From assembly GCA_038153405.1 (NCBI GenBank), contig JAYOYH010000017.1, positions 1 through 28,251 on the forward strand: a stretch of 28,251 bases of DNA, in the 5' to 3' direction. The stretch's first letter is position 1, and each line of letters opens with the position of its first letter. Of this stretch, positions 1 to 17,544 are shown piece after piece. Source of the DNA: Gemmatimonadota bacterium (GTDB lineage Bacteria; Latescibacterota; UBA2968; UBA8231). Made by a program: the position numbers and the translations under genes. A model generated the notes under the pieces. That model saw only the letters and a list, made by a program, of their open reading frames with translations. It did not search any database and was not told where the DNA came from.

Positions 1-2826
1 ATCACCGACGATCAGGGTCGCTACTTTATTCTTAACGTGCCCCCGGGCGCGTATGCAGTAGAGGCTAGCTACGTCGGTTATCAGGCGCTGCGCAAAACCG
101 ATATCGCGGTGCGGCTCGACCTGACGACGACGGTGGATTTCAGCCTCGCCACCGAAGCGGTGCAGACGGAGGCTATGGTCATCACGGCGGAAGCGCCGAT
201 GGTTGAGCGCTCGCTGACCACCAGTCGCGCATCGATCGGCCTGTCCGAGATCAACAATACGATGCCGGTGGCTGATCTGCAGGATCTCATCAACACCACG
301 CCGAGCGTCTTTCGCGGCTATATTCGCGGGGGTCGCAAGGCCGAAGCCAAGGTCTTAGTCGACGGGGTCGACGTCTCCGATACCTACTTTCGCGCGGGTG
401 AAGGAGGCAACACATACAATCCGTACACGGACGTCAACCGCACCTCAGACGGTGAGTTTACGGCCGTGGGCATCAATGCCAGCAACGTGCAGGCGCTCGA
501 TATCGTGGCCGGCACGTTCAACGCCGAGTACGATGCGGCCAGCGCCGGCGTTATCAACGTCGTCACGCGCGAAGGGGGCGATGAGTTAGAGGGGCGCCTC
601 TTTATCCGCAGCGGTCTTGGTGGGTATAAAAATGCGGGCCCGGATGTGTATGAGGGACGCGTCAATCCAAAGCCTGCCGATGATGGCAGCGTCGACAAGA
701 CGACGTACTACGATCTGTACGAGCAGGCCCGAGACCAGCTGTTGGCCTCGGAAGACGCCGCAGACGTGGCGAAGGCCCAGCAGTACTACACCTTCAGACC
801 GGGCGACGTTACCTACGGCAGCAATCCGACGAGCGAAGTGGAGCTTTCGTTGGGTGGTAAGCTACCTGCCATTGGCACCAACTTCTATCTGACTACGCGC
901 TACCTCAACGACGAAGGCCTGTTGCCCAACACGCTCAATCGCTCGATGCGCCATTCGCTCAAGCTGACGCACAAGGCGGGCGATAACCTCAAGCTGACCG
1001 GCAACGTTATGATCGACGACGGCGGCGAATTGGGTGGCTGGGTAAACCGCAACTTCAGCGGTAAGTATGCCTACTATCCGGAAGGCGCGCTAGGTAATAA
1101 GAAGCTGGGTACTATGATGTATGTGGGCGCCAACTACTCGTTTTCGCCCAACACGTTTTTGGATGTCAAAGTGTCCAACGTAACGCGTTCGAGCACGTTT
1201 GGTTATTCCGATGACGATGGAGACGGCATCGTTGAAGAAGGTGAAGACGGCGATTTCATATTCATCGACAGCGCGGAAGAATCCGTAAAGTATCTCGGCG
1301 TTGACGGAAGTGGTGCCGATGCAGACGGCAACTTCACCTACTTCACCACCAACCCGGGTAACTCGAGAAACTTTGACCTGCCGTTTGGTTCCAATCAGTA
1401 CCGCCTAGGTCAGCCGGGTTTCTTTTACGAGGAACTCAATCGCGACGTGCTGCAGTTTAAAGCAGACCTTACGCATCAGATTAACTTTCATCACCAGTTA
1501 AAAGCGGGTATGCTGGTGCGCAAGCACTCCGTGTCGCAGCTCATGCAGCGCACCCAGGTCACGGTCGGCTACAGCAACCTGCCTTTCGAAGTGGGTGAGT
1601 ACGAGCGCAGTCCTTCTGAGATGGCCGTGTACGTGCAGGACAAGATCGAGTACGAAGGCATCATCATTAACGCGGGCGTGCGCCTCGACGGACTCAACGT
1701 CGATGCAGAGCAGATCGCCGATTTCTTCCGTCCGTCCGAAGAGGCCGAGTACACCTACGGAAATGGACAGACGCAGATCTATCGCCGACCGATTCGCGAA
1801 GGCGCAGTCGACACCAAGTGGTTTCTGCAGCCTCGCCTGGGCATTTCGCATCCGATCAGCGACAATGCGGCCATGCACTACTCGTGGGGCAAGTTTTACT
1901 CGCCGCCGTCCTTCTCTAAGCTGTATGACGATTACGCCAGCTTCGCCAACCCGTCCTATCCTGCCATCTACGACGTAGAGGCGGATCCGACGACGTCGAC
2001 GGCCTACGAGATGGGCATTCAGTACAGCTTTCATCCAGAGTACCTGGCGGACATTACGGCGTATTACCGGGACATCGAAAACTATGGCGATATTGGCTTT
2101 GCCATCAGTCCGGCCGATGCGGGCTTTGCTAACTACAGCTTCCGCACCTCGGGTGGGTATGCCGATAGCCGCGGTATAGAGCTGGGCATCGAGCGTCGTT
2201 CGAATAGCCGTATCAACGGCCGTTTCAACTACGCCTACAGCTATATCAAGGCCTCGCGTAGTGGCAATAACTCGACGCCGTTCCCCAATAAGTCTTCGTT
2301 TTCGCACGCCAGTGAGACGGATGTAGATGCATTGACCACGGCGCTTGAGAACAAAGAGTCGTTTAACACCTACGAAGCCAATGTGAACGGGGGTGGTAAT
2401 CCGCTGGTATCGGGTTATGACCGCGCCCATCGCATCGGTTTGACCTTGCTGGCTACGCTGCCTGCCGAAGTCGAACTGGCACTCATCACGACCGCCGAAA
2501 GTGGTTTCAACTTCAACATTACGGCGACCACCGAGGATCCGCGTGCCAGAGAGACCGATCGCGCACCGTGGAACATGCGCATGGACATGCGTCTCAACCG
2601 CGGTTTCCAGCTAGGCGGCTATGAATTAGGTGCGTTTTTTGAGGTGAGGAACCTGATGAACCGCGAGAACATTCTGACCTATGATAATCGCAACGTGCCG
2701 AGCGTCACCAAGTGGGAAGAAGATGGAGATCCGACCGGAGACCTCAATCGCGCCTTCACCGCCCAGAGCCAGGCCATTTATGACATTCCGCGAATGGCTA
2801 ACATCGGCATAACAGTGGATTTCTAA
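1..2826 (+). CDS. TonB-dependent outer-membrane receptor with N-terminal carboxypeptidase-regulatory-like domain (5'-truncated by window edge)
   Basis: Frame is open from base 1 (ITDDQGRYFILNVPPGAYAVEASYVGY, typical CarboxypepD_reg-like extension), so GTG at 37 is internal. Plug motifs IRGGR...VLVDGVDV and GTFNAEYDAASAGVINVVTREG; barrel strands (QPRLGISHP, AYEMGIQY, DITAYYRDI); ends in C-terminal Phe (IGITVDF). Confidence 0.93.
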   Translation: MTDDQGRYFILNVPPGAYAVEASYVGYQALRKTDIAVRLDLTTTVDFSLATEAVQTEAMVITAEAPMVERSLTTSRASIGLSEINNTMPVADLQDLINTTPSVFRGYIRGGRKAEAKVLVDGVDVSDTYFRAGEGGNTYNPYTDVNRTSDGEFTAVGINASNVQALDIVAGTFNAEYDAASAGVINVVTREGGDELEGRLFIRSGLGGYKNAGPDVYEGRVNPKPADDGSVDKTTYYDLYEQARDQLLASEDAADVAKAQQYYTFRPGDVTYGSNPTSEVELSLGGKLPAIGTNFYLTTRYLNDEGLLPNTLNRSMRHSLKLTHKAGDNLKLTGNVMIDDGGELGGWVNRNFSGKYAYYPEGALGNKKLGTMMYVGANYSFSPNTFLDVKVSNVTRSSTFGYSDDDGDGIVEEGEDGDFIFIDSAEESVKYLGVDGSGADADGNFTYFTTNPGNSRNFDLPFGSNQYRLGQPGFFYEELNRDVLQFKADLTHQINFHHQLKAGMLVRKHSVSQLMQRTQVTVGYSNLPFEVGEYERSPSEMAVYVQDKIEYEGIIINAGVRLDGLNVDAEQIADFFRPSEEAEYTYGNGQTQIYRRPIREGAVDTKWFLQPRLGISHPISDNAAMHYSWGKFYSPPSFSKLYDDYASFANPSYPAIYDVEADPTTSTAYEMGIQYSFHPEYLADITAYYRDIENYGDIGFAISPADAGFANYSFRTSGGYADSRGIELGIERRSNSRINGRFNYAYSYIKASRSGNNSTPFPNKSSFSHASETDVDALTTALENKESFNTYEANVNGGGNPLVSGYDRAHRIGLTLLATLPAEVELALITTAESGFNFNITATTEDPRARETDRAPWNMRMDMRLNRGFQLGGYELGAFFEVRNLMNRENILTYDNRNVPSVTKWEEDGDPTGDLNRAFTAQSQAIYDIPRMANIGITVDF

Positions 2827-2839
2827 TAGGAGCTATATC

Positions 2840-5362
2840 ATGCATATGCGAGTAAAAAAGACGTCGCTGTGGGCGGTGGCTCTGCTCTTCGGTATCGTCG
2901 GTAGCGCCTTTGCTCAGAAGGCGGGAGGCGTTTTCACCGCGGGCGATATCTGGGAGTCTTTCCTCCCGAGTAATGCGGGCCGCTTTTACGGAGAAGTCGC
3001 CGACGACCCGCAAAAGAGCTATGACCTGTTCCGAGTCGGTAACTGGGATCGCCAGTGGACGACTCCGACGCAGACCTATCCCGGCGGTGAGAATATCCAC
3101 TTGCCCTGGGGCCAAGAAATACAGATGTCGATGTACAGCTCGAGTGAGATTAACAACTTCACCGATTCGAATGCGCCCAGTGCCAGAAACTATCTGCTCG
3201 GTTTCTACACGAGTAATTTAGCGGGTGCGGGTGATTCCAATCGCGACTACACCAGCGATGGGGGTAGCTACTGGGCTGACAGCGACCGCAACGAGATGCA
3301 CTATACGGGCGGTATGCCAACCAACTTGGGCGTTGATGTGAAATGGCGCATGCGTCAGTATGCAGCCAACCACGCCAACCTGAACGACTTCATCCTCATC
3401 GAGTTGGAATTGACCAATACCGGCGTGCTCGATGCCGACGGCGACGGCGTGCCGGAAAAGACCGACAACCGCGTCGAGGCGCTCACGCTGCACATGCAGA
3501 ACGAGCCGATCAACTCGATGACGAACAGCAACAACGGTCGTCGCGGGGCCAGCGGTTGGTTTACCGGCCCGACATCGGGATACGATGCAACGCCGGACGG
3601 TAGCGGCGCAGCGTGGGACGTGCCGGTCGTGTTTACCGGTCCTGCGCCTAGCTCGCTGACCGAGCCGCATCCGGTCTTTGGTGGCAGCAGCGGCTGGTCC
3701 GCCGATGGCAAACGCTTGCTGGGTAGCACCATGCGCAGCCGCGGTCATTACTACGACATCTACAACGGTATGCAGTGGATCGCTGCTAAACAGGGTGGCA
3801 TGCCGGCCATTGGTAGCAGTGCTAACCAGGACGACAAGCGCACGATCTACGATAGCCATCCCGTCGGAGAGGGCGCCCAGCGCGGCTGGTTTACCTCTGT
3901 GCTGAAAGACGACGGTGGTCGTTCCGATGCGCGCGCATCGCATATCTATGCTATGAGCACGTTTTTCAACGGGCAGTCGATTGGTAGCCGCGTATGGGAT
4001 AAGGGTGCTTCGATCCAGAGCGCGAGTGCCCTAGTGCCCGATCCCAACTGGTTTGATCCAGACCATCCCGATATCGTGCCGGGCGATCCGCTGTCGTTTG
4101 TAAACGCAGTGCGTCCCGAGGGCGAGCGCGGTCAGCCGTTGGGCGATATGAAGTACAACAACAAGTTTGTGCAAAACTGGGAAGTCGATCCGAGCCAGAG
4201 TCTCGATAACCAGCCCGACTGGGCCTGGACAAAAGGCTACACGATCGATCACGGTTTTGACGGAAACATTCTCGTGGGTATTGGTCCGTTCGACCTGGAA
4301 GTAGGCGAAACGATAAACCTAGTGCTCGTAGAGTACGCTGGTTTTCGTCTCCAAGGCGCGCGCGCTGCCCGTCAGACGGCGCAGTGGGTGTATGAAAACG
4401 ACTTCCAAGTCCCGTCGCCGCCGCCGACGCCGAATATGGTGGTTGCACCCAATACAAACGTCAAGATTGATATCAAGTGGGACAATCGGGCCGAGTCGGA
4501 TCCGGACTTTGCCGGCTATAAAGTCTATCGTTCGGCGCTCTTTCCTCGCGTAGACTCACAGCAGGTGGGTATCCGCGTGGTAGATCGCTATCACGAGCAG
4601 ACAAAGGAAAATCCGACCGACGCTGAGCTGGCTGCATTGGGTAAGGCGAACAATCCCAATATCAGCTCTGCGGCCTACAAGCCACAGGAACCTGCGGCGT
4701 GGGGTCCCTATCGTCTAATCAAGCATGTTCCCGCTAGCGAGTTGGGGAACTATCTGAACGATGGTGCTGATAGCGGCACGTACAAGTACAAGTTTGAAGA
4801 CGAGAGCGACTTAGTGACGTTCGGTTTCACCTACTACTACTACGTGGCGGCATATAACAGCGATTCGGGCTCGATCAATGGCCAGGCATTTAACGGTCTT
4901 GAGACGCATCGTCACAACTTTAACGGACGCGACGGTTTGTGGAAGGGCACGTATCACTATGCGACGGCGTCGTCTTTCTTTCCCGCAGATCTGCAGGCCC
5001 AGAAAGACATTGGGGCCGCGTTTATTCTCAAGTCGCCCCTCGTCGATTCGGCGGAATTGGCCAACGGAAACCTCTCCGTGCGCGTAGTCCCCAACCCTTA
5101 TAAGAAAGGGGCTCTGCACGACACGGGTACCGAGCACAAGATGCTCTTTATCAACCTGCCCACCGGCACAAAGGTCACCATCTTTGACGTGTCGGGTCAG
5201 GTTATTGACGTCTTGCGCTTTAATGGCACCAATGCCTACGACGGTACGCTATTCTGGGATATGTTTTCCAAGGATGGTATCGAGGTTGCAAGTGGTCTAT
5301 ACATCTACGTGGCCGAGTACCCCGGTGGTTCACAGACCGGGCACTTCGCCATTCTGCGCTGA
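2840..5362 (+). CDS. Secreted 840-aa protein with FN3-like domain and T9SS-type/FlgD-Ig-like C-terminal sorting domain
   Basis: AGGAG SD upstream; Sec signal (MRVKKTSLWAVALLFGIVGSAFA|Q). Pro linker then FN3-like segment (IDIKWD...FAGYKVYRS...TYYYYVAAYN). C-terminus VRVVPNPY...KVTIFDVSGQVI...FWD...VASGLYIY...GHFAILR matches the CTD pattern. N-terminal ~520 aa not recognised. Confidence 0.8.
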   Translation: MHMRVKKTSLWAVALLFGIVGSAFAQKAGGVFTAGDIWESFLPSNAGRFYGEVADDPQKSYDLFRVGNWDRQWTTPTQTYPGGENIHLPWGQEIQMSMYSSSEINNFTDSNAPSARNYLLGFYTSNLAGAGDSNRDYTSDGGSYWADSDRNEMHYTGGMPTNLGVDVKWRMRQYAANHANLNDFILIELELTNTGVLDADGDGVPEKTDNRVEALTLHMQNEPINSMTNSNNGRRGASGWFTGPTSGYDATPDGSGAAWDVPVVFTGPAPSSLTEPHPVFGGSSGWSADGKRLLGSTMRSRGHYYDIYNGMQWIAAKQGGMPAIGSSANQDDKRTIYDSHPVGEGAQRGWFTSVLKDDGGRSDARASHIYAMSTFFNGQSIGSRVWDKGASIQSASALVPDPNWFDPDHPDIVPGDPLSFVNAVRPEGERGQPLGDMKYNNKFVQNWEVDPSQSLDNQPDWAWTKGYTIDHGFDGNILVGIGPFDLEVGETINLVLVEYAGFRLQGARAARQTAQWVYENDFQVPSPPPTPNMVVAPNTNVKIDIKWDNRAESDPDFAGYKVYRSALFPRVDSQQVGIRVVDRYHEQTKENPTDAELAALGKANNPNISSAAYKPQEPAAWGPYRLIKHVPASELGNYLNDGADSGTYKYKFEDESDLVTFGFTYYYYVAAYNSDSGSINGQAFNGLETHRHNFNGRDGLWKGTYHYATASSFFPADLQAQKDIGAAFILKSPLVDSAELANGNLSVRVVPNPYKKGALHDTGTEHKMLFINLPTGTKVTIFDVSGQVIDVLRFNGTNAYDGTLFWDMFSKDGIEVASGLYIYVAEYPGGSQTGHFAILR

Positions 5363-5390
5363 ATCGATCTAGGAAATGGAGGCTTAACAC

Positions 5391-6431
5391 ATGAAAGCTT
5401 TAAAGATCATAACAGTGCTGGGAATGGCCGTGCTCGTGGCGGCCGTCCAGCCTGCAGAGGCCGGCGTAGGAAAGTCCGGTCTCACCGGTGCCGCCTTTCT
5501 CAAGGTCGGCGTGGGCGCTCGTGCCGTGGCTTTGGGCTCGGCCTACACTACCGTTACGGGCGATGTGAACCAGATGTTTTGGAACCCCGCCGGCACGGCG
5601 ATGAGCGACGGCAAGGCGCAGGTCTTGCTCTCGCACAACTCGTGGATTGCCGACTTGTCGCACGATGCGGTGGGCTATGCGCGCGATATGGGCGATATGG
5701 GCACGCTGGGTATCGGCGTGGTCACGCTTGGTTTGAGCGATATCTCCGCCGACCGCGACGCCGTGCCGCAGTTTGTGCTCGATGCCGGCACCTTCGACCC
5801 CAACGATACCGCGACGTCGGGTAGCTATTCGTATCGCGACTTGGCCATCGGCGTCACCTGGAGTCGCCACATCACGGACCGCCTCGACATGGGTTTGACG
5901 GGCAAGATTGTCCGCCAGGCCATTGACGGTGTTAGCGCTACGGCCTATGCCGCAGATTTTGGCGCGATTTATCGCGTCGGCAACGGCATGCGCCTTGGTG
6001 CGCGCATCAACAACCTAGGCAGCGACCTGACGTTTTACGACATCGGCGCGCCGCTGCCGCTGATTTTCAGCATCGGTGCCGCCGCCGATCTGCTGCACAA
6101 TCGCGACGATGGCATGCAGGTTACGCTGCTGGCCGATGCGACCAAGCCGCAGGACGGCGAGCAGCTGCTCTACACGGCCGTCGAGGTGCAGTTGTTCGAT
6201 ATGCTGCAGTTGCGCTCGGGCTATAAGTTCAACTACCAGAGCTCGGAAGACGAAAAGGTGGACGAGGTCGATGGAACGGCATTTGATGCCCCGCGCACCG
6301 AAGAAGGCCTAACCGCTGGTATGGGTCTCGACGTGGGCATGGGGGGCTACGATGCCACCCTCGACTACGCCTTCACTTCGTTCGGCATCCTCGACAGCGT
6401 GCATCAGTTCTCGCTCAAGTTTCAATTCTGA
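5391..6431 (+). CDS. PorV/PorQ-family (FadL-like, UPF0164) outer-membrane beta-barrel
   Basis: GGAGG SD; signal peptide; family motif AAFLKVGVGARAVALGSAY...MFWNPAG; amphipathic strands; ends LDYAF...HQFSLKFQF with terminal Phe. Confidence 0.85.
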   Translation: MKALKIITVLGMAVLVAAVQPAEAGVGKSGLTGAAFLKVGVGARAVALGSAYTTVTGDVNQMFWNPAGTAMSDGKAQVLLSHNSWIADLSHDAVGYARDMGDMGTLGIGVVTLGLSDISADRDAVPQFVLDAGTFDPNDTATSGSYSYRDLAIGVTWSRHITDRLDMGLTGKIVRQAIDGVSATAYAADFGAIYRVGNGMRLGARINNLGSDLTFYDIGAPLPLIFSIGAAADLLHNRDDGMQVTLLADATKPQDGEQLLYTAVEVQLFDMLQLRSGYKFNYQSSEDEKVDEVDGTAFDAPRTEEGLTAGMGLDVGMGGYDATLDYAFTSFGILDSVHQFSLKFQF

Positions 6432-6454: not shown

Positions 6455-6498
6455 AACAGGGAGGCCCCCGGGATGTGCTTTCGGGGGCCTCTTTTGTT
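6455..6498 (+). terminator. Intrinsic terminator after the TBDR-CTD-PorV unit
   Basis: 10-bp perfect stem GAGGCCCCCG (6461-6470)/CGGGGGCCTC (6482-6491) followed by TTTTGTT. Confidence 0.85.
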
Positions 6499-6643
6499 GC
6501 AGTGAGTTGTCTCTGCATCGCGCCGAGTTGTCGTCGGCGGGGCTGGTGCGGGATCCCGAGCCTATATTTCTACTAATCATCCTCTAGGCCGCTGCTGGGC
6601 GGATTGCCCGTCGCGGTCGCCATAGATCCAAATTCTATTTAAC

Positions 6644-9600
6644 GTGAGAATCGGGTTATACATAGTCCTGCTAGGCGCTGCCTGCAGTGTTGTTCGAGCC
6701 GATGCGGGCCTCGAAGACCGGCTGCGCCACTCCGTCCACGAGCTCTCAGGCCATGCCTCGCGCATGACAGGCTATGCGGGCGCCGACGCGGCGGCCCATT
6801 GGATTGAGCGCGCGCTGGGCGAAATGGCCGTCAAAGAGATTCACCGCCATGCGTTCCCGCTGCTGGTGCCGATGGACGAGGGATTTTCGCTGGAGATCGA
6901 AGGGCAATCTCTGCCGATCTATGGCGTTTGGCCCAATCTAATTCGCACATCCACTCTGCCCGACGGGGGGATTGAGGGTCAACTGCTCTACGGCGGCGAC
7001 GGCAGTCTCTTAGAGGGCAGGCCGGTAGCCGATCGCATCGTGCTGCTCGAATTCAACGCGCAAGACGTCTGGGTAGAGGCTTTTCAGCTGGGCGCGCAGG
7101 CGGTGATTTTTCTGCCAGCAAAAGGCGCACATCGCGCGGAAGCCGGACAAAAATTTCTCGATGTTCCCGCTGATTTGCCGCGTTTTTTTGCGCCGCAGTT
7201 GACGGCCGATGTGCTGCGCGCGGCGGCCGAGCGCGGGCCGCGGGTGCGCCTGAGCGGGCGCATGCCCATGCGCGAAGTGACGGCGCACAACATCGTGGCC
7301 ATCGTCGAAGGCAGCGACCCGCAGCTGCGCGGTGAAGCGGTGTATGTGACGGCGTATTACGACGCCATGTCGCCGGTGCCCGCACTGGCTCCGGGCGCAG
7401 AGCAGGCCAGCAGCGCGGCGGCCCTGCTCGAATTGGCGCGCGGCTGGACCGAGCGGCGTCCGCGCCGCACCGTCGTGCTCGTGTGGACGGCGGGTCATTT
7501 CCAACACCTCGCCGGCATGCGCTATTTGACGCCGGTGGTGATGGCCGCAGCTGGGCGTCGTCCGCCCGATGGGCTAAGCGAGCGGGAGCGGGCGCTGGCT
7601 GAGCGGTTAGGTGCGTTTAGGCTGCGCTTTGCCGCTGGTCTGGATCTGTCTTCCGGCAGCCCTATGATGGGCGCCTTTCGCCCGAATGCTCCGTATCGAA
7701 CTTCGCTGCTAGCACCGCCCCTTACCGTGCGCTTAATGGACCGCGTAGCGGCGTATGAAGATTCACTAGCAGCAGGTCGGCGCATATTTGCCAACGGCCT
7801 CAGGCAGGACTTTACGCGCCAGAGCCTCGGTTCTATGGCAGAGGTCGTGCCGATGGACGCCGCAGTGCTGGCGCTGGCCGGCTGTCCGACGATCGCTTTT
7901 GCGACGATCAACGACAGCCGCGCCCGCTTTGACGTCGTCGACGACGTTGCCGAGCGCGTGCGTTTTGCGTGGCTGGGCGAGCAGGTCGCGCTCCTCAAAT
8001 TTGTGTTATCGGAGCTGGTCGACGACGGCCAATTGGCTCCCTGGGAATGGGGCAATGACGCCTTTGGAACCATTCGCGGGCAAGTGGTTCACTACGGTCC
8101 GCGCAGCTATTTGCCCGACGAGCCCACCGGTCATGCATTGGTGCGCGTGCGCCTACGCCATCCGACGCTGTCCGGCGTGCGCCCCGATTTGTGGGCGGCG
8201 GCGGACGATTCGGGTTATTACCGCATACCCGGCGTAGAGACGCGCATTATCTATACGCAGCCGGTGCGCTTGGAGGCCTACGCGCTGGACGAGCGCGGTG
8301 CCGTTGTCGCAGCGCCGGATTGGGGCATAAACGGCGAGCGCAAGCTGCCCGGCCGCGCCCTCAAGGTGCTGATGGACGATCACGAGGAAGAGGTGCAGAT
8401 CGTTACGGCGAATCTGCGCGGCACGGCGCTCTTTGGCCTGTTTGACCCGCGCAACTTGCTGATGCCGGAGAATCTTGGCGCGATCGACGCGAGCCTCGAA
8501 GCGGAGCCCATGTCGTACGGGGCGTGCCTGCCGCTGACGGCACCGGAGATGGATCTATTTGGCTATAGAAACTACGTCGGTTCGCTAACGGAATCGGTTG
8601 CGGTGCTCTTTACCCGCCCCGGCACGCGCTTTAAGGTGGCCATGTCTACCGGGCGCTACGGACTGGGCCGCCGCCTACTGCTGCTCAATAGCAGCGACGA
8701 AAATCCGCTGGGTGCGGGCTTTGCCGTGCAGGACGAAGGTCGGCTGCCCAACACCGTTTACCAGGCGGCGCGCGATATGTTCTTGCTCAACGGTGCGCGC
8801 ATCGACAACCTGCAGCGACACGGCGTGCGCAACGGACGGCTGGCCGAGTTTCACGCGCGCGCGAAGGCCTACCTAGAGCAGGCCGATGCGGCGCGCGCGC
8901 GCTGGGCCCATCGCCTTTCGATCGATGCGGCGCGGCGCGCATGGGCCTATTCGGCCGCCGCCTATCGCGACGTTGAGAGCACGCAGGCCGGCGTGGTCCA
9001 AGGGGCGCTGTTTTTGTTGGCCGTCCTGCTGCCTTTTGCCCATTTTGCCGAGCGCCTGGTATTTGGCTTTCCCGACGTGCGCCGTCAGGTGCTGGGCTAC
9101 TTCGGGCTCTTCTTTGTCGGCTTTCTCGTCTTGAGTCAGCTGCACCCCGCCTTTGAACTGTCGATTTCTCCCTTTGTGATCTTGCTCGGCTTTGTCATCC
9201 TATCGCTGGGGCTGCTGGTAACCGGCATTGGCATTTCCCGCCTCAACCGCGAGCTGCAGGAACTAGCGCGCGGCCGGCGTGGCCACGCCTCCATGCAGCG
9301 CGGTGGAGCGGTTATGGCATCCATATCCGTGGGGTTAGCCCATATGCGGCGGCGGCCGCTGCGCACGGGAATGACCTGTGCAACGCTGGTCTTACTGACG
9401 TTTTCCGTGCTGTCTTTCACGTCCATTCGTTCGGCTCTGCGCACCAACTGGATCGACGTGGGGAGCGGGGCGCACTACGACGGCGCGCTGCTGCGCACGC
9501 TCGGTTGGAAGGCGATGGAAATGGAGGCCTACCGCATGCTGGTCGACTGGTTTGGCGTCGACAATGTCGCGCCGCGCGCCTGGAAGTCGGTTTCCTCAGC

Positions 9601-11035
9601 GGCGGCGACTTTTCGCGTCGAACGCGCCGATATCTCGGGGCGCGCGACTGGGGTTATGGGTTTTGCCGGTTTGAGCGCAGTCGAAGCGCACCTCGTGCGT
9701 CCGCAGGAAGGACTTGTCGCCGGGCGCTGGCTGCGCGCAGAGGAGGACGATGTATGCCTGCTGCCGCTGGGCGTCGCCGATTCGCTGGGCATTGGCCCAG
9801 CCGATGTGGGCCGCGCTCGGGTGCGCCTGTTTGGCGAAGAGTTTCGCGTGGTTGGGATTTTGGAGCACGCGGCGCTGGAACGGGTCGATCTCAACGGCGA
9901 GGGGCTGACGCCGCTCGATCCGGAAGCGCAGCAGCCCACCGAGGCTGCCTCGACGCAGCAGGGGGGCATGCCGCAGCACTACGCCCATATGCCGGGCGCG
10001 TCGACGCTCGTGCTGCCTTTTTCTTCGCTGATGCGCTGGCAGGGTGCGCACCTCGTATCGCTGGGCGTGCGGATGCCGCCAGCGCGCGCGCGCGCGGAGC
10101 TGGAGATGCTCTCCGAAGGCGTCGATTTAAACCTGTTTGCCGGTCTTGGGGGACGCCGCTATTTGATCAATACGGTGGGAGTAGCCTCCGTTTCGGGACT
10201 GGGACAGCTGGCCGTTCCACTGGGCATTGCCGCGCTGATTGTGCTCAATACGATGCTCGGCGCCGTCTACGAGCGCACGCGCGAAATAGGCACGCTCAAC
10301 GCCATCGGCTTGGCGCCGGTGCACGTGAGCGGACTCTTTATTGCCGAGGCGGTGGCGCTGGCCGTGATTGGAGCGGTTATGGGCTACCTGCTGGGGCAGA
10401 CGGCGGCGCAGCTGATGGGCAGCTTGGGCTGGTTGCAGGGGTTGGAACTGAATTACTCCTCGCTGTCGGCGGTGGTTACTGTGGGATTGGTCATCGCGCT
10501 GGTCGTCGCGTCGGCGCTCTATCCGGCGCATATGGCCGGCAAGATTTGCACGCCGGGTATCGAGCGGCGCTGGAAGCCGCCGGTGCCCGATGGCCACGAC
10601 CTGCGCATGCGTCTGCCCTTTACGCTGGCGCGCGTAGAGGCCGATGGCATGGCCGCTTTTCAAACCGAGTTTTGGGCGGCCCATCGCGAGCAATCGATTG
10701 GCGCAGGGTTTTACGTCGAAGCCCTGCGCGTCGGTCGCCAAGAGAGCGGTCTGCGCCTCGATGCGCGCGTTTGGCTTGCGCCATTTGACCAAGGCGTTGT
10801 GCAGGATACGGCGCTGTTTATCCGCCCTGGTGAGAACCCGCTTTACTGCGATATCGACGTGCACTTGCACTTGGTCTCAGGCGATTGGGATACTTGGCAG
10901 CGCGTGGCGCGCACCTTTCTCGACGATCTACGCAAGCAGTTTCTCGTATGGCGCACGTTAGCGGATGCCGATCGCCGCGCCTATGCCAGCGCGCTTGCGC
11001 GCTGGGAGCATGTGGGCGACGAGGTGCAGGTATGA
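6644..11035 (+). CDS. Large membrane fusion protein: degenerate M28-peptidase/PA ectodomain + beta-sandwich + extra TM bundle + MacB/FtsX-like ABC permease + C-terminal soluble domain
   Basis: Signal-like N-terminus. PA insert (GQLLYGGDG...DRIVLLEF...LGAQAVIF). M28 fold (NIVAIVEGSDPQLRGEAVYVTAYYD...PGAEQASSAAALLELAR). MacB TM1 (RRRPLRTGMTCATLVLLTFSVLSFTS), periplasmic core (GLVAGRWL...CLLP...ADSLGI...FRVVGIL) and FtsX motif (NTMLGAVYERTREIGTLNAIGL...LFIAEA). GTG start lacks a clear SD. Confidence 0.85.
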   Translation: MRIGLYIVLLGAACSVVRADAGLEDRLRHSVHELSGHASRMTGYAGADAAAHWIERALGEMAVKEIHRHAFPLLVPMDEGFSLEIEGQSLPIYGVWPNLIRTSTLPDGGIEGQLLYGGDGSLLEGRPVADRIVLLEFNAQDVWVEAFQLGAQAVIFLPAKGAHRAEAGQKFLDVPADLPRFFAPQLTADVLRAAAERGPRVRLSGRMPMREVTAHNIVAIVEGSDPQLRGEAVYVTAYYDAMSPVPALAPGAEQASSAAALLELARGWTERRPRRTVVLVWTAGHFQHLAGMRYLTPVVMAAAGRRPPDGLSERERALAERLGAFRLRFAAGLDLSSGSPMMGAFRPNAPYRTSLLAPPLTVRLMDRVAAYEDSLAAGRRIFANGLRQDFTRQSLGSMAEVVPMDAAVLALAGCPTIAFATINDSRARFDVVDDVAERVRFAWLGEQVALLKFVLSELVDDGQLAPWEWGNDAFGTIRGQVVHYGPRSYLPDEPTGHALVRVRLRHPTLSGVRPDLWAAADDSGYYRIPGVETRIIYTQPVRLEAYALDERGAVVAAPDWGINGERKLPGRALKVLMDDHEEEVQIVTANLRGTALFGLFDPRNLLMPENLGAIDASLEAEPMSYGACLPLTAPEMDLFGYRNYVGSLTESVAVLFTRPGTRFKVAMSTGRYGLGRRLLLLNSSDENPLGAGFAVQDEGRLPNTVYQAARDMFLLNGARIDNLQRHGVRNGRLAEFHARAKAYLEQADAARARWAHRLSIDAARRAWAYSAAAYRDVESTQAGVVQGALFLLAVLLPFAHFAERLVFGFPDVRRQVLGYFGLFFVGFLVLSQLHPAFELSISPFVILLGFVILSLGLLVTGIGISRLNRELQELARGRRGHASMQRGGAVMASISVGLAHMRRRPLRTGMTCATLVLLTFSVLSFTSIRSALRTNWIDVGSGAHYDGALLRTLGWKAMEMEAYRMLVDWFGVDNVAPRAWKSVSSAAATFRVERADISGRATGVMGFAGLSAVEAHLVRPQEGLVAGRWLRAEEDDVCLLPLGVADSLGIGPADVGRARVRLFGEEFRVVGILEHAALERVDLNGEGLTPLDPEAQQPTEAASTQQGGMPQHYAHMPGASTLVLPFSSLMRWQGAHLVSLGVRMPPARARAELEMLSEGVDLNLFAGLGGRRYLINTVGVASVSGLGQLAVPLGIAALIVLNTMLGAVYERTREIGTLNAIGLAPVHVSGLFIAEAVALAVIGAVMGYLLGQTAAQLMGSLGWLQGLELNYSSLSAVVTVGLVIALVVASALYPAHMAGKICTPGIERRWKPPVPDGHDLRMRLPFTLARVEADGMAAFQTEFWAAHREQSIGAGFYVEALRVGRQESGLRLDARVWLAPFDQGVVQDTALFIRPGENPLYCDIDVHLHLVSGDWDTWQRVARTFLDDLRKQFLVWRTLADADRRAYASALARWEHVGDEVQV

Positions 11036-12939
11036 TAGCGACGGTGAGAGCGCTATTGCTCATCGCCGGCATCACGGCGCTGAGCGGCTGGTTGGCTCAG
11101 CGCATCGAGCTCGTCTATAGCGGACCGCATATCGCCGGTGCGGGCAGTTCGCCGGGTGAGCAGGTCTTTCTCGCCGTGCCGCTGGGGGCGCTGGCGGCGC
11201 TGGCCCTGCTGCGGCGCTGGCTGAGCGAGGGCGAGCGCGCGGTGATCTACGCCGGGCTTGCCGTGGGCGTGTCGGCTACCGCTTCGGGTCTTATGCACCG
11301 CTTTTTGCCGGGGTTGGTGACGGGCTTTTACGGCGGCTTTGCCAGCCCGACGGGGCCCTACTTTAAGTTTTTGCAGGTTGTGCCCGAATGGGCCGTGCCC
11401 GGTGGCCCCAACGCGCCGGCGGCCATCGGCGCCTTTGAAGGCGGCGCTTCGGTGCCATGGGCGGCGTGGGCCGTGCCGCTGGCGGCGTGGTCGCTGTTTT
11501 TTGCCGCGCTATTTCTCACCTCATTTTGCCTAGTCGCCATTTTCCGCGAGCGCTGGATGGAGACCGAGCGATTGGGATTTCCGCTGCTGGAAATGCCGCT
11601 GGCCCTGCTGCGCGAGGGCCTGTTTACCAATCGCCTGTTTTACTGGGGATTGCTCGTTTCCGTTCTCTTGCTCGGCACCAATGGACTTAACCACTACGTT
11701 CCGGCCGTGCCGCAGATCACCCTCGGCCTCAACTTTGCCGATTTCCTCCTAGACGATCCCTGGAAGGCGATGGCGCCCTTTGAGACGCCGTTCCGCTTTC
11801 AGTTTTCCCCACTGCTCGTGGGCGTCGCCTTTTTGGCGCCGGTCGAGGTGTCGTTTAGCACGTGGTTTTTCTTCTTGGTCTCGCGCCTCCAACTGCTGGT
11901 AACGGGGCTTATTGGCCGTCTGGAGTATCGCGGCGAGTTCATACCGGGACACGGGTCGCCCTGGCTCGATTGGCCGTCGCACTTTCCGTTCTTTATGCCG
12001 CAGGCGCGCGGTGGGCTGCTTTTTTTAGTGCTCTTTGGCTTGTGGACGGCGCGGCGCTCGCTGGCGGCTATGTTGGCCCCGGGTCGCTGGCAGGTGTGGG
12101 GGTTTGCCGCTGGTTTTGCCCTGCTATGGGCGTGGATTGCCCTGCTGGGCGTGCCCGTTGCCATGGCCGGTCTGACGTTGGTTCTGTTTTTTTTGCTGGC
12201 GCTGGGCTTTGCGCGTCTGCGCGTCGACGGCGGCCTGCCCGTAAACGGCGTGCCGCAGATTATGGGCTATATGTTTTTTGTGGCGTTGGGCACGGGGCCG
12301 GGGGTCTTTCCCGATCAGACCTATGTGGCCTTCGCGCTCTTGGCCGTATTGGGCTTTACCTGCGTGGGTATCTGGCCGGCCCTGCAGTTTGAAGGGCTCA
12401 AGCTGGCCGAGGCGACAAGCGTTGCGCCGAGCCGCATGGTCTTAGGCATGTGCGTGGGCCTGGCCGTCGGCCTGGCCGCTGGCTATGTCTTCTCGTTGGA
12501 GGCGATCTACCAGCACGGCCTCTTTGCCTTGCAGGAGCAGGGCGGCGCGCGCTCGGAAGCGCGCATTGGGCGCTATTACAACTATCTGTTCAAAGACGCC
12601 GGTGCCACGGTGGGACCGACCGACTGGATTCGCCTGGCTTTCCACGGCGTGGGGGCGGCAGTGACGGCTTTCCTGGCGGTGATGCGCCAGCATTTTCTGC
12701 GCTGGCCCTTTCATCCGATGGGCTATGTCTTTGGCACGGGCTTTGGCTGGCTGGTGTGGGGGCCGGCGCTGGTGGGCTGGTTGTGCAAGTGGCTATCGGT
12801 GCGCTACGGTGGCGCGCAAACCTATCGCCGCCTGCTGCCCTTTTTTCTGGGGCTGATCTTTGGCGAGGTGCTAATGCGCCTCGTGTGGGCCGCTGTCGCG
12901 CTGTGGCAGGGGCAGATGGGGGCGGGATTCCGCTTTTAA
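11032..12939 (+). CDS. Polytopic membrane protein, DUF6785/DUF6784-like (distant OPT-superfamily relative)
   Basis: Start re-assigned to ATG 11032, which overlaps the upstream stop (ATGA), giving 635 aa. Highly hydrophobic. Motifs RERWMETERLGFPL and RWPFHPMGY...GWLCKWLSVRYGG...YRRLLPFFLGLIFGE recalled as typical of DUF6785/DUF6784 proteins. Confidence 0.75.
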   Translation: MIATVRALLLIAGITALSGWLAQRIELVYSGPHIAGAGSSPGEQVFLAVPLGALAALALLRRWLSEGERAVIYAGLAVGVSATASGLMHRFLPGLVTGFYGGFASPTGPYFKFLQVVPEWAVPGGPNAPAAIGAFEGGASVPWAAWAVPLAAWSLFFAALFLTSFCLVAIFRERWMETERLGFPLLEMPLALLREGLFTNRLFYWGLLVSVLLLGTNGLNHYVPAVPQITLGLNFADFLLDDPWKAMAPFETPFRFQFSPLLVGVAFLAPVEVSFSTWFFFLVSRLQLLVTGLIGRLEYRGEFIPGHGSPWLDWPSHFPFFMPQARGGLLFLVLFGLWTARRSLAAMLAPGRWQVWGFAAGFALLWAWIALLGVPVAMAGLTLVLFFLLALGFARLRVDGGLPVNGVPQIMGYMFFVALGTGPGVFPDQTYVAFALLAVLGFTCVGIWPALQFEGLKLAEATSVAPSRMVLGMCVGLAVGLAAGYVFSLEAIYQHGLFALQEQGGARSEARIGRYYNYLFKDAGATVGPTDWIRLAFHGVGAAVTAFLAVMRQHFLRWPFHPMGYVFGTGFGWLVWGPALVGWLCKWLSVRYGGAQTYRRLLPFFLGLIFGEVLMRLVWAAVALWQGQMGAGFRF

Positions 12940-12963: not shown

Positions 12964-14946
12964 GTGGCACAACACGATCCAAACGCCGACCTGGAGGCCT
13001 ATCGCAGCCTGATGGAGCGGCCCGAGCACTTTGCGGAGGGATTTACCTACCGCACGGTGATTGGCGCGTTCTTTGTCGGCTTTATCATGATGCCGGGCGC
13101 CATCTACATGGGATTGATCGCCGGCGTATCGCTGGGTTCGGCGGCCGAGTGGGTGACGATCATCCTCTTTTCCGAACTGGCGCGGCGCTCGTTCTCTTCG
13201 CTGACGCGCCAGGAGATCTATCTCATATACTATATTGCCGGTGGCCTAGCCGGCGTCATTGGCGGCACCATGCTGGCTGGTGGGCCCTTTGGCCAGCTGA
13301 TGTGGAACCAGTATTTGGTGCAGTCGCAGGCGGCCGAAGGCTTTGGTATCGCCGACAAGATACCGGACTGGGTTTCGCCGATGGCCGGGTCGGAGGCCAT
13401 CCTCTCTCGCTCTTTTCTGCACCGGGCGTGGATTCCACCGATCGCCGTGCTGGTCGCCGCGCAGGTGCTGTCGCGCGTGGAATGGTTTACGCTCGGCTAC
13501 ATTCTCTTTCGCGCGACCTCCGACGTCGAGCGCCTGCCCTTTCCGCTGGCCCCCGTCGCCGCGCAGGGGGCGATGGCGTTGGCCGAGAACGACGACGAGC
13601 GCGAAGGGTGGCGCTGGCGCGTCTTTTCGGTGGGATTGGGCATCGGATTGCTCTTTGGAGCGGTCTATATCGGGCTACCGGCGCTAACGGGTTTGATTGC
13701 CAGCGATCCCATTGCGCTACTGCCGATTCCGTGGATCGACCTGACGCGCACGACCGAATCCTTTCTGCCGGCCGCACCGCTGGGGATAGGCACCGACCTC
13801 GGTCTGGTGCTGCTGGGCACGGTGCTGCCCTTCTGGGTGGTCGTCGGGTCGTTTACCGCGGCCATGGTGCATGCGCTGGGCAGCCCGCTGCTCTACCACG
13901 CCGGATTTCTAACGCACTGGCGTCCGGGCATGGATACGATTATGACCAACTTTGCCAACGATGTCGACGTGTGGATGAGCGTCTATATCGGGGCCGGATT
14001 TGCCGTTGGCATCATTGGCGTTATCCACGCTGTGCGCTCGTTTCGCACTGCCCATCGCGAAAAGAAAATGAGCAGCTTTAGCATCGTGCCCAAAGGGCGC
14101 GGTGATTTTCCACTGTGGTTGGCCTTTGTCGGTTACGGGCTGTCGACGCTGGCCATGGTTGCGCTGTGCACGCTGCTGCTGAGAGACGACGAATTTCCGC
14201 TGGCCTTCCTGCTCATCTTTGGTTTTGTCGTCACGCCCGCTCTGTCCTATGTCAATGCGCGCATGTCGGGGCTAACGGGCCAGACGGTATCGTTTCCAAT
14301 GATTCGCGAGGGGGCTTTCATACTGAGCGGGTACAACGGAGTCGATATTTGGTTTGCGCCGATACCCTACGCCGATCACGGTCGTCGCGCACAGCTCTTT
14401 CGCGAGGTCGAGCTGACGGGCACGCGCTTTACGTCGATTCTCAAGGCGGAATTGCTCATCCTGCCGCTGAGCCTGATCTGCGGCTTTGTGTTTTGGCAGC
14501 TGATCTGGAGCATGGGACCGATTCCCTCGCCGGCCTTCCAATATGCACAGACCTACTGGCATTTGATTGCGCTGCGGCAGTGCTTGTGGTATTCGGCGAC
14601 GCTGGGCGGAGAAACGCTCTTTGATACGGCGATCAAGGGATGGTGGATTGCCGGCGGCTTTGCCTTTGCCGGCGGGGCGTTCGGCGTGCTGTCGCTGCTG
14701 CGCCTGCCGGTATCGCTGATCTACGGTTTTGTGCGCGGCCTGTCGGGACTGCCGCACCTGCTGATCCCAGAGATGATCGGCGCCCTGCTGGCGCGCTACT
14801 CGTTAGAAAAGCGCTTTGGCGCCGAGCGCTGGCGCCAGTACGCTCCCGTATTGTTGGCCGGCTACGCCTGTGGGATGGGATTAATCGGCATGTCTGCCGT
14901 GGCCATTGCGCTCATATCAAAATCCGTCACCCAAATGCAGTACTGA
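12964..14946 (+). CDS. OPT/YSL-superfamily (oligopeptide/metal-chelate) transporter-like protein
   Basis: AGGAGG SD before GTG. N-terminal EGFTYRTVIGAFFVGFIMMPGAIYMGLIAG followed by LTRQEI; ERLPFPLAPVAAQG matches the OPT LxFP motif; many TM segments over 660 aa. Confidence 0.8.
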   Translation: MAQHDPNADLEAYRSLMERPEHFAEGFTYRTVIGAFFVGFIMMPGAIYMGLIAGVSLGSAAEWVTIILFSELARRSFSSLTRQEIYLIYYIAGGLAGVIGGTMLAGGPFGQLMWNQYLVQSQAAEGFGIADKIPDWVSPMAGSEAILSRSFLHRAWIPPIAVLVAAQVLSRVEWFTLGYILFRATSDVERLPFPLAPVAAQGAMALAENDDEREGWRWRVFSVGLGIGLLFGAVYIGLPALTGLIASDPIALLPIPWIDLTRTTESFLPAAPLGIGTDLGLVLLGTVLPFWVVVGSFTAAMVHALGSPLLYHAGFLTHWRPGMDTIMTNFANDVDVWMSVYIGAGFAVGIIGVIHAVRSFRTAHREKKMSSFSIVPKGRGDFPLWLAFVGYGLSTLAMVALCTLLLRDDEFPLAFLLIFGFVVTPALSYVNARMSGLTGQTVSFPMIREGAFILSGYNGVDIWFAPIPYADHGRRAQLFREVELTGTRFTSILKAELLILPLSLICGFVFWQLIWSMGPIPSPAFQYAQTYWHLIALRQCLWYSATLGGETLFDTAIKGWWIAGGFAFAGGAFGVLSLLRLPVSLIYGFVRGLSGLPHLLIPEMIGALLARYSLEKRFGAERWRQYAPVLLAGYACGMGLIGMSAVAIALISKSVTQMQY

Positions 14947-15259: not shown

Positions 15260-16438
15260 CTAAAGATGCGCTTTTGCTGCTTCTATGGCCTCGAGTGCGC
15301 GCGCGACTTCGGACGGCGCGTTATACAGGTGGATTGAAGCGCGCAGGGCGTTGAGTCCGCCTTCGTATATGCCGCGCAGGCGCAGGCGGTGGTTGCTCCA
15401 CAGATAGCGTTGTACATCGGCGTATGCCAGGCCGGGCAGGCGAAAGCTCAGTATAGAAGCAGAGCGCGTGCTCGTGACTACCTCGGCACCCAGTGCGCGC
15501 AGTCCTTCGGCGAAGTGCCCGGCCAGCGTGCGGTTGCGTAGCCATATATTATGTGCGCCGACCTCCTGCCAAAAAGATAGGGCGGCTTGCAATCCGACGA
15601 CCAGCGACGCATTGACGGTGCCGTATTCGTAGCGCTGCGCGCTGTCGATAAAATCAAAAGCCCCCGTTTCCATGGAAGAATATCCGGCGTTGGAATAGGC
15701 GCCGACGTGGGTGGCCTGCACGCGATCCAGCGCGTCGCGGCGCACAAATAGAAATCCCGTGCCGTTGGGACCGAGGAGCCACTTGTGGCCGCTCGTCGCA
15801 TAGGCGTGGCAGCCGATGGCTCGCAGGTCGACGGGTATGCAGCCCAGCGCCTGGGCCCCATCGACGAAGTAAAAGATATTGCGCTCCTTGGCCAGCGCGC
15901 CAATTGGGGCAACCGGCAGCACCTGACCGCTAGCGCAGCTGACGTGCGGTATGCTCAGCGCGCGCGTGCGCGCGCTCAAGAGCGCCTCGATGCGCGCAAC
16001 CGTTTCTCGTTCATCGGCAGCGGGCTGAAATACCTTGATGGATAGGCCATCTCGTCGAGCGCGCGCCAGCCAGGTAATGGTGTTGCCAACGTGCTCGTGA
16101 CTGCTGGTAATAATCTCATCGCCGCGCCGCAGCGCCAGGCCGTTGCAGACGATATTGCTGCCCTCGGTGGTGTTGCGGGTGAAGGCAATCTCGTCTGCCG
16201 AGCAATTGAGAAACTGCCCAACGCCTTCTTTGACTCCTTGCCACAGCGCGGTAGAATGACCGCTGTCCCCGCTCTGTGCCAACTGCTCCATGTGCTCTCG
16301 CACGGCGTCGAGAACGGGGTGCGGCGCAATGCCCATCGTAGCCGTATTGAAGTAGATGCGGTCGCGCAGCAAGGGAAATTGGTCGCGTACGGCGGCCCAA
16401 TAGGCTTCGTCAAATGGATCGATTTCAGATGCACTCAT
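15260..16438 (-). CDS. Class V PLP-dependent enzyme (C-S lyase / isopenicillin N epimerase-like)
   Basis: YFNTATMG, FTRNTTEG, HEH, DGAQALG, TSGHKWLLGP (PLP lysine), RYEYGT, LRASIHLYN. Start re-assigned to MSASEIDPF (16438) to avoid overlap with the GNAT gene. Confidence 0.88.
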   Translation of the reverse strand: MSASEIDPFDEAYWAAVRDQFPLLRDRIYFNTATMGIAPHPVLDAVREHMEQLAQSGDSGHSTALWQGVKEGVGQFLNCSADEIAFTRNTTEGSNIVCNGLALRRGDEIITSSHEHVGNTITWLARARRDGLSIKVFQPAADERETVARIEALLSARTRALSIPHVSCASGQVLPVAPIGALAKERNIFYFVDGAQALGCIPVDLRAIGCHAYATSGHKWLLGPNGTGFLFVRRDALDRVQATHVGAYSNAGYSSMETGAFDFIDSAQRYEYGTVNASLVVGLQAALSFWQEVGAHNIWLRNRTLAGHFAEGLRALGAEVVTSTRSASILSFRLPGLAYADVQRYLWSNHRLRLRGIYEGGLNALRASIHLYNAPSEVARALEAIEAAKAHL

Positions 16439-16445
16439 CGTGTGC

Positions 16446-17429
16446 TCACGGAAGCAATGTGCGCTTGAGCGTTGCGGCCCGGCGCAGCCAGGCGTTGCCA
16501 AAGTGTTCGGTCGTATAGTAGGGAATCAAGTCGCCGCCTAGACCGCGTTTAAAAAAGGCCACGGCGGGTATATTGGCGCCGACAAAATCAAAGCGCTGCT
16601 GGGCGCACTGCTCGAAGTACTGCCAGTAGAGCAGCGAAGTGGCGCCGCTGCTGTTGTGCTGCGGATCGGCGCCGGCAATCCACGCATAGCTGGTCAACGC
16701 TCCCTCCACAAAGGCGACGATGGTGGCCGTCGCTCCTGTGGGCGACTGTGCGGCAAAGAGGCGGGCCTGTCCGGTGCGCAGGGCATCGCCGACGAAGCGG
16801 CGGATTTTTTGCTGGGCGATGGGGGCGTCGTGTCCGTGCCGAGCATAGATCATCTCATACTGGTGGCACAGCAGGTCAATGTCGTCGGTCTGAACGAGTC
16901 GATAGCCCAGCTTTTGCGCTTTGCGAATCGCCGTGCGCGTGCGGCGCTCGACGCGTTCCCATAGCGCGTTGAGGTCGCTAAGGTCCATCTGGTAGGTATA
17001 GCGCACGCGCGCCTGCCAGCCGGCCCACATGAAGGGGCGCACGTCGTCGAAGGCGGGGTCGTGCGTCAGGCGCACGTGGCCATAGGGCCGCAAATACTCG
17101 ATGAGCAGTTCGGCGGCGCGGTGGCGCTCCGCTTCGATTTTGGCCGGTCCCTTGCTCTCGATGGGGGCCAATAGGAGGCCGGTGTGCGGCGTGAGCTCGG
17201 GCGTTTCAACGCGCTCGACACCGCGGCGTTTGTAGGTGAGTCCCGACAGGCCAGCCACCAGTGCATCGCCCTTAAAAACGCCGATGCAAAGGGGCTGTCC
17301 GCCGAGCGCCTGCGCAGCGCAGTGCAGCCACGATGCAGTTGCAAAGGGGCTGCTGCCGCAGCTGCCTTCTACAAAGGCATCCCACAGGCGAGCATCTTCC
17401 ACGCGGCGAATTTCATGGGTCTGAGACAT
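16446..17429 (-). CDS. GNAT-fold protein (Acetyltransf_6 / FemAB-like)
   Basis: WDAFV...SPF...WL; RTRTAIRKAQKLG; YAWIAGAD...SGATSLLYW...FDFVGAN...AFFKRGLGG. Start re-assigned to MSQTHEIRR (17429). Confidence 0.85.
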   Translation of the reverse strand: MSQTHEIRRVEDARLWDAFVEGSCGSSPFATASWLHCAAQALGGQPLCIGVFKGDALVAGLSGLTYKRRGVERVETPELTPHTGLLLAPIESKGPAKIEAERHRAAELLIEYLRPYGHVRLTHDPAFDDVRPFMWAGWQARVRYTYQMDLSDLNALWERVERRTRTAIRKAQKLGYRLVQTDDIDLLCHQYEMIYARHGHDAPIAQQKIRRFVGDALRTGQARLFAAQSPTGATATIVAFVEGALTSYAWIAGADPQHNSSGATSLLYWQYFEQCAQQRFDFVGANIPAVAFFKRGLGGDLIPYYTTEHFGNAWLRRAATLKRTLLP

Positions 17430-17436
17430 AGACCAA

Positions 17437-17465
17437 AGTATAAAGAAATCCCCGTTTTGATGTAA
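17437..17465 (-). promoter_or_regulatory. Putative sigma70 promoter giving a leaderless GNAT mRNA
   Basis: Minus strand: TTACAT-17 nt-TATACT-7 nt-ATG, no SD. Confidence 0.55.
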
Positions 17466-17544
17466 GCAACACTTGGATCGCGCGGGCGGTTGGGGCGCAT
17501 TCTGTGCACTGCGCGATTGCGCGGCCACAGCGGCGAATTGTCTA

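Follow-up and report, generated by a model that had tools for sequence, protein, structure and literature searches.

The window analysed here is the 28,251-nucleotide contig JAYOYH010000017.1 (assembly GCA_038153405.1) of a Gemmatimonadota bacterium that GTDB places in Latescibacterota. An open reading frame at positions 6644-11035 of the forward strand encodes a protein of 1463 amino acids, in which a permease of the MacB/FtsX type carries a head with the fold of a protease-associated (PA) domain and an M28 peptidase. A Pfam scan of the whole protein detected the FtsX (PF02687, E 1e-12) and MacB_PCD (PF12704, E 1e-4) domains and missed M28, which was found on residues 20-470 (PF04389, 27.4 bits for a cut-off of 21.3). 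The permease module matches MacB, LolC/E and YtrF in Foldseek (structural Z 13-17), and the four-transmembrane (TM) FtsX core and the MacB-like periplasmic domain of a type VII ATP-binding cassette (ABC) permease are both present. In total the protein has about seven TM helices and the FtsX module, and residues 465-1463 were modelled by AlphaFold2 with a predicted local distance difference test score (pLDDT) of 83.9. The likely signal peptide and the count of TM helices suggest that the head is located outside the inner membrane.

The head was modelled with AlphaFold2 from 66 sequences (residues 20-470, pLDDT 96.4). It has the M28 alpha/beta fold, and the model matches active M28 aminopeptidases with structural Z scores of 27-31. 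The closest structures are PA-containing M28A aminopeptidases, which share both the PA domain and the M28 fold (B. subtilis YwaD/BSAP, PDB 6hc6, with Z 30.8, 375 aligned residues and a root-mean-square deviation of 5.7; Aneurinibacillus AM-1, 2ek8; P. aeruginosa PaAP) and are the best profile matches as well (E 5e-19). The Aeromonas/Vibrio aminopeptidase (AAP) aligns over 256 residues with Z 27.7 and a deviation of 2.5. M28A aminopeptidases are soluble enzymes with both zinc sites and the catalytic Glu, whereas the site is remodelled here and the domain is the head of a multi-pass permease. The PA domain was detected as PF02225 in 9 of 42 homologues and aligns with the PA regions of active M28s in hhalign (E 5e-12). 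A sequence-only reading of this DNA had located degenerate M28 motifs by eye, and their placement in the M28-fold region is borne out by the position of the reading frame, Pfam, the model and the structure matches: all start in frame, AYYD at 7352, PGAEQAS at 7391, GHFQHLAGM at 7493 and RFDVVDD at 7925, as does GLDLS, recognised in addition, at 7637. The features are collected in Table 1.

Table 1. Features of the fusion gene and of the two genes that follow it (positions in the window).
Feature	Position	Strand	Basis or remark
Fusion gene	6644..11035	+	Encodes, in this order, a likely signal peptide, a PA-M28-like head, a stalk with beta-sandwich and helical parts, three further TM helices, the MacB/FtsX permease module and an alpha/beta domain at the cytoplasmic C-terminus
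Likely signal peptide, residues 1-19	6644..6700	+	Hydrophobic stretch; cleavage site by eye
PA domain, about residues 77-207, inserted in the M28 fold	6872..7264	+	Secondary structure of the model; PF02225; hhalign
M28-like catalytic-fold domain with remodelled site, residues 206-462	7259..8029	+	Pfam, model, structure matches, profile alignment
AYYD...PGAEQ: Tyr238, Asp240, Ser243, Glu253/Gln254; bridging-Asp loop one residue short	7352..7405	+	Alignments
His285-Phe286 where AAP has catalytic Glu151 and ligand Glu152	7496..7501	+	Profile alignments to AAP
Asp334, single clearly retained metal ligand (Asp179 position)	7643..7645	+	Asp in 323/345
Arg426 (family-specific), Asp430 in place of ligand His256, Asp434	7919..7945	+	Alignments
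Two beta-rich domains and three-helix stalk between head and membrane	8063..8990	+	Model
Three additional predicted TM helices	8993..9229	+	Hydrophobicity, model
Type VII ABC permease module (TM1, then a periplasmic core like that of MacB, then TM2-4 and a coupling helix)	9299..10549	+	Pfam, Foldseek, structure comparison
C-terminal cytoplasmic alpha/beta domain, Aha1/START/KA1-like arrangement	10592..10963	+	Structural Z about 9, weak
DUF6785/DUF6784 polytopic membrane protein	11032..12939	+	Pfam; its start and the fusion-gene stop overlap in ATGA
660-aa polytopic membrane protein, no Pfam family, distant DUF6785 homologue	12964..14946	+	hhalign to DUF6785, probability 92, E 5e-7

Between the head and the membrane, a PDB sequence search with the first beta domain gave no match, and a single homologue matches CarboxypepD_reg in this region (E 0.003).

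The site was compared with that of AAP (His97, Glu151, Glu152, Asp179 and His256), the correspondences being those of profile alignments. The general two-site layout of the M28 metal centre is described in PMC4320195. The family comprises 2010 representatives at E values up to 0.001 and 1148 at 1e-10 (50% identity). Sites were scored in 345 of 379 family sequences, the 34 with a gap at a scored site being dropped. These 345 are made of 119 close relatives, 120 representatives and 106 sequences of an archaeal clade, in which Thermoprotei, Bathyarchaeia and Ignisphaera make up most of the named members and one is a WOR-3 bacterium. Where the sequence-only reading had exchanged H for Y, EE for HF and the last ligand H for D, the alignments place Tyr238 at the His97 position, His285 on Glu151, Phe286 on Glu152 and Asp430 at the His256 position, in agreement with it. 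It had also aligned the GAxD motif to PGAEQAS; the region was right, but the loop from the Gly to the Glu of the following helix counts 11 residues in all 345 members and 12 in other M28s, and the exchange of D for Q is therefore an unsafe mapping. Glu253, rather than Gln254, may stand at the place of the bridging Asp.

The catalytic Glu is kept in none of the 345 members, 329 having a His instead, the Glu ligand is also kept in none, and the last His ligand, at the position of Asp430, is retained in 4. A di-zinc peptidase site can therefore be firmly excluded, as far as alignments go, for the whole family, and the protein should not be a standard peptidase. Among the five ligands of such a site (His, Asp, Glu, Asp/Glu, His) this protein keeps Asp334 and possibly Glu253, and family members keep at most three of five even by the mapping of the sequence-only reading. 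The claim that metal and catalytic residues were lost thus stands for the catalytic Glu and the di-zinc site but not as a total loss of metal ligands, and a complete loss of metal binding or of chemistry is not a firm conclusion from these alignments. The pocket appears remodelled and not decayed, judged by a near-invariant set of new residues (Asp240 in 345, Ser243 in 340, His285 in 329, Asp334 in 323 and Arg426 in 320 of the 345). In 276 members, His285 is accompanied by acids at both 253 and 334. The idea that GHFQH holds a new pair of His forming a site fails on His288, a variable position where Ala, Gly, Ser or Asn are commonest among the 125 representatives left after 25 of 150 without a full head were dropped.

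The fusion gene is followed by genes for the two polytopic membrane proteins of Table 1. The genome holds six paralogues of the fusion protein (33-35% identity), and the other five each adjoin a DUF6785 gene, a gene for a 660-aa-type protein or both; at C5:115786-122154, the M28-FtsX protein is even fused to DUF6785 in one frame of 2122 amino acids. Among the 55 related loci with 3 kb or more of flank on either side, a 660-aa gene or a DUF6785 gene lies within 7 kb in 50, and both do in 25. Related loci are labelled mostly as Latescibacterota, and also as Armatimonadota, Planctomycetota, Gemmatimonadota and others. The head was found in 140 of 151 genomes of the phylum (1-8 matches each), precisely those that have the 660-aa protein, and the 11 genomes lacking both belong to one family. 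A small FtsX protein is matched exactly once in 138 of the 140 genomes with a head and never in the 11 others. In three Armatimonadota-type loci (L036, L056, L079), the fusion-gene cluster extends into genes for PqqD, a small FtsX protein and a LolD-like ATPase. The genome studied here has an orphan small FtsX gene (about 234 aa, almost no periplasmic domain) with a LolD-like ATPase gene at C18:18805-20329 (L258, L260), and this ATPase is 66% identical to that of L079; no paralogue has an ATPase gene within 20 kb on the same contig, and the window contains neither a cognate ATPase gene nor a gene for the partner permease. The C18 pair is likely the shared motor. A predicted complex of the permease part with the small FtsX protein (score 0.29, mark 0.32) is not used as evidence.

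Some further observations concern the surroundings. In seven loci (L036, L051, L056, L063, L065, L069, L079) and at C8:105427-106422, the 660-aa-type gene is followed by genes for a PqqD-family protein and for a protein of 300-330 aa that belongs to no Pfam family. About 20 DUF6785 matches were counted in the genome, most of them far from any fusion gene. One paralogue cluster, at C7:80596-91080 and in L033, comes after genes labelled by eye as TPR, ExbB/TolQ-like and peptidyl-prolyl-isomerase-like. In the window, positions 37-6431 hold a TonB-dependent receptor-like gene, a gene for an 840-aa protein with a C-terminal domain of the type IX secretion system (T9SS) and a PorV-family gene, found upstream in this paralogue subgroup in 8, 11 and 13 of the 55 loci, respectively, at times with a further DUF6785 gene. 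A GC-rich inverted repeat followed by a T-run was seen by eye 3' of the PorV gene (about 6460-6500), where the terminator scan did not flag it. A promoter and terminator scan of the gap upstream of the fusion gene gave no promoter and one terminator-like site, equal to shuffles. On the other side, a class V aminotransferase/cysteine desulfurase-like gene and a FemAB/GNAT gene (15260-17528, reverse strand) are convergent with the operon and are followed by ilvC-leu-arg-acc genes; none of these was seen as a conserved partner.

We propose, with a probability of about 0.5, that the head is a non-cutting receptor for the free amino end of a peptide-like cargo, mounted on a type VII ABC motor that feeds the neighbouring permeases. 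The head would grip the amino end of the cargo outside the inner membrane without cutting it. The permease would pair with the single-copy small FtsX protein and the LolD-like ATPase encoded elsewhere (C18). Movement powered by ATP would then pass the cargo on to the neighbouring DUF6785 and 660-aa membrane proteins for transport inward, and a single motor would serve paralogues whose heads differ. We infer the binding, the partners, the cargo and the direction of this system. An amino-terminus receptor is preferred since the retained acid 253, His285 and Asp334 correspond to that half of the M28 site where the amine of the substrate is bound. Having many heads and one motor gene is what one would expect if substrate-specific receptors drew on a common energising module. 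The PqqD-family proteins encoded in the cluster in 6 of 80 loci, which bind peptides, also count in favour of the proposal. The system shares the four-TM permease, the periplasmic core and the coupling helix with type VII ABC systems (MacB, LolCDE, FtsEX, YtrEF, YbbAP-TesA), and its permease would likewise form a heterodimer with a second one. It differs from them by one motor that would serve several paralogues and by the fused pseudo-peptidase head, the three extra TM helices and the conserved polytopic partners, which none of them has.

Several points weigh against this proposal. Type VII ABC systems export or act mechanically, and none is known to import. An ATPase gene was found near the fusion gene by motif search in only 5 of 80 loci, 3 of them of the cognate type. 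The transporter label of both neighbours is weak: "OPT-like" for the 660-aa protein is based on PF03169 at E 0.37 in 1 of 17, and PDB sequence searches with this protein and with the DUF6785 protein gave no match. Moreover, the 11 genomes without a head form one family, so that the co-absence of the genes counts as a single event.

Instead of receiving cargo, the head could be a remodelled but active hydrolase or transferase that trims cargo before transport, using one metal (held by acid 253, Asp334 and, if present, His238) with His285 as general base. Most members have the acid 253, His285 and acid 334 set, and His238 with both acids is found in 128 of the 345 members, 65 of the 106 archaeal-clade sequences among them; half of the metal site may persist, chiefly in the archaeal members. 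His285 also corresponds in the alignments to the His of the AAP mutant E151H, which the title of PDB entry 2anp calls "functional", and Ser243, His285 and Asp334, all invariant, might act as a catalytic set of another kind. However, all 345 members have lost the second zinc site, and this protein, like 95 of the 120 diverse representatives, has Tyr238. Even among the 119 close relatives the position is split between His (61) and Tyr (54), which is unexpected for an essential ligand, and we consider an active enzyme unlikely.

A part in an envelope or membrane-protein biogenesis or quality-control machine, comparable to nicalin in the BOS complex or to LolCDE, is another candidate role; the sequence-only reading had named membrane-protein biogenesis or quality control as a possibility. 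We found no support for such a role, the architecture, copy number and neighbours fitting a transport system better, and we hold it to be improbable. It would agree with the careful tree described below, which puts the family beside nicalin, with the action of nicalin at the multipass translocon (PMC7505659) and with type VII permeases such as LolC/E, whose fold matches and which pull proteins from the membrane. The family is also near-universal in the phylum, and the PorV and T9SS-type cargo genes are found ahead of the fusion gene in this subgroup (in 13 and 11 of the 55 loci). Up to eight divergent heads per genome with one motor gene, on the other hand, fit substrate-specific receptors better than a housekeeping factor, and one family of 11 genomes lacks all three genes tested. 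In addition, no translocon gene was noticed among the neighbours read, and the architecture is wholly unlike that of the single-pass nicalin. Just as improbable in our view is a system exporting a peptide or glycoconjugate, which PqqD would deliver inside and the dead-peptidase head would receive outside. PqqD-family proteins bind peptides and are encoded in 6 of the 80 loci, and the direction would be that given above for type VII ABC systems. Yet most paralogue clusters lack PqqD, and the neighbours read show no conserved gene for a precursor peptide or a modifying enzyme.

By analogy, a receptor head on the motor would be one more reuse of a dead M28 fold, as in the transferrin receptor or nicastrin. 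Transferrin receptor 1 lost its M28 site independently; its ectodomain is also a PA-M28 fold serving as a non-catalytic receptor (Z 24.7), but it is a type II single-pass dimer and scores lower with the family profile. Nicastrin presumably keeps a Glu (E333) at the general-base position, where the family has His. It has an inactive M28-like large lobe whose dead pocket, with E333, was proposed to bind substrate in PMC2647162. Its resemblance to the family, claimed from the motifs, holds as a weak profile match (E 0.007-0.012) and fails in Pfam, since the family lies below the PF05450 (Nicastrin) cut-off of 25 bits. Only 1 of 42 members matched PF05450, at E 0.002, and in this genome two paralogues reached 14.7 and 13.4 bits versus 22.1 bits for an ordinary M28. 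No presenilin-type partner was seen here.

The resemblance to nicalin (NCLN) is closer. Nicalin was the only PDB match of the single sequence (residues 1-480, E 0.7) and came third with the family profile (E 1e-11, one stretch of 270 positions), so that the likeness stands at the sequence level. The motif wording was rejected as proof of kinship: among 114 other M28s, AHYD occurs in 55 and LEL/IAR-type words in 32, and such words are common in active enzymes. By hhalign, nicalin and the family align over 306 columns (probability 98.4, E 7e-15), and active M28s score equally. With the nicalin profile, five of the six paralogues of this genome reach 22-32 bits versus 12-16 bits for its three active M28s; the medians are 34.3 bits for the archaeal clade (n=106), 28.0 for representatives (n=103) and 21.4 for other M28s (n=113), or 17.4 without those picked by the same profile (n=88). 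Two features are shared besides the inactive M28 fold. The Asp-to-Gly loop, with a Pro, counts 10 residues in 340 of 379 family members and in 0 of 108 other M28s; in nicalin it also has 10, ungapped in the alignments, although the metagenome nicalin set has this length by construction. The Ser-Asp-His-x of active enzymes is replaced by a hydrophobic residue, an acid, x and Glu, as L/F-D-x-E in the family and W-E-H-E in nicalin (Glu in 16/20 and 8/8, respectively; this protein has Ala at the Glu). Nicalin differs by its 12-residue GADSNGSG loop, kept in 22 of 22 where the family has its deletion, by Gly in place of the family His at the general-base position, by the lack of Arg426 and by its type I topology, with a single C-terminal TM helix, in the endoplasmic reticulum; its partners at the translocon are TMEM147 and NOMO. 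Nor does its N-lobe show profile similarity to the family PA domain: we discarded the PA lobe as independent support, as the nicalin N-lobe gave E 0.17-0.53 with the family PA and 0.007 with active PA domains.

Nicalins for this comparison were gathered from metagenomes by a motif scan (37 loci); all 20 that were aligned carry PF05450, and 13 of 35 frames were dropped as partial, intron-containing or redundant. Trees were built under LG+C20 after near-duplicate active M28s had been removed, and their outgroups come from Planctomycetota and this genome, without active archaeal, Bacillota or eukaryotic M28s, nicastrins or Asgard proteins. A first tree with 3 outgroups was uninformative. Family and nicalin were joined with Shimodaira-Hasegawa-like approximate likelihood-ratio test (SH-aLRT) supports of 95 and 96 with 37 and 62 outgroups, respectively, and of 96 after removal of 12 ligand and catalytic columns. 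In a careful tree (22 family, 8 nicalin and 41 other rows) the support was 95/95, and the sister of nicalin was the family or part of it in 948 of 1000 bootstrap trees. An unrelated planctomycete M28 that degenerated independently (L247, G172:C580) joined neither group in the 62-outgroup tree.

Against these trees, the alternative that joins nicalin to the main active clade is not rejected (approximately unbiased test, 0.454 and 0.25), and the stem of nicalin is long (1.9). When all 50 motif columns were left out, an unconstrained search no longer recovered the clade and nicalin stayed unplaced, although a tree constrained to contain the clade scored higher than the result of that search. Profile-profile comparisons of the catalytic domain in five subsets of 20 also speak against the link, with scores of 117-128 for nicalin and family, 117-151 for nicalin and active M28s and 173-194 for family and active M28s. 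The catalytic-domain profile ranks YwaD (41 bits) above nicalin (37 and 34), which ties with AAP. In searches with the nicalin profile, intact Planctomycetota M28s reach 45-47 bits, equal to the best family members. A structure search with the head model placed active aminopeptidases on top, and nicalin and nicastrin were absent among the matches listed, which carries no weight against them, as a family may go unlisted. The nicalin-profile search of long proteins, a weak test with a word filter, found 9 eukaryotic nicalins only. In the atlas, the matches listed for a protist nicalin query were eukaryotic nicalin and nicastrin clusters only, and those for the head query were bacterial M28 clusters only.

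By architecture and Pfam cut-off, the fusion protein falls outside the nicalin and nicastrin families. Kinship with nicalin, favoured by the trees and the two shared features while the profile-profile controls do not favour it, is a possible and real lead that is not established and that we think more likely to be wrong than right. The same doubt attaches to its full form, in which the family, bacterial and Thermoproteota-archaeal, would be the prokaryotic sister of nicalin and by extension of nicastrin. The dead ectodomain of the BOS complex and of gamma-secretase would then descend from the receptor head of an ancient ABC-motor and permease machine with one FtsX/ATPase motor for several heads, the archaeal members being at a half-metal intermediate stage. 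Searches of the literature found no paper on nicastrin together with Asgard, on DUF6785, or on FtsX/M28 with these taxa, and no prokaryotic origin of the nicalin and nicastrin ectodomains in the searchable papers. The accessible part of PMC7505659 does not discuss prokaryotic homologues, and the main text of PMC10307638 mentions neither nicalin nor nicastrin, although its table of archaeal homologues may bear on the question.

Altogether, the dead site is a solid observation and the eukaryotic link is unproven, and the best reading of the fusion protein is that it carries the ligand-binding head of an undescribed ABC-motor and permease system. Apart from any link to nicalin, the family is large, spans bacteria and archaea and is near-universal in its phylum. 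If the kinship holds, what the dead nicalin and nicastrin pockets bind could be put to the test in a prokaryotic relative that is soluble and folds well.

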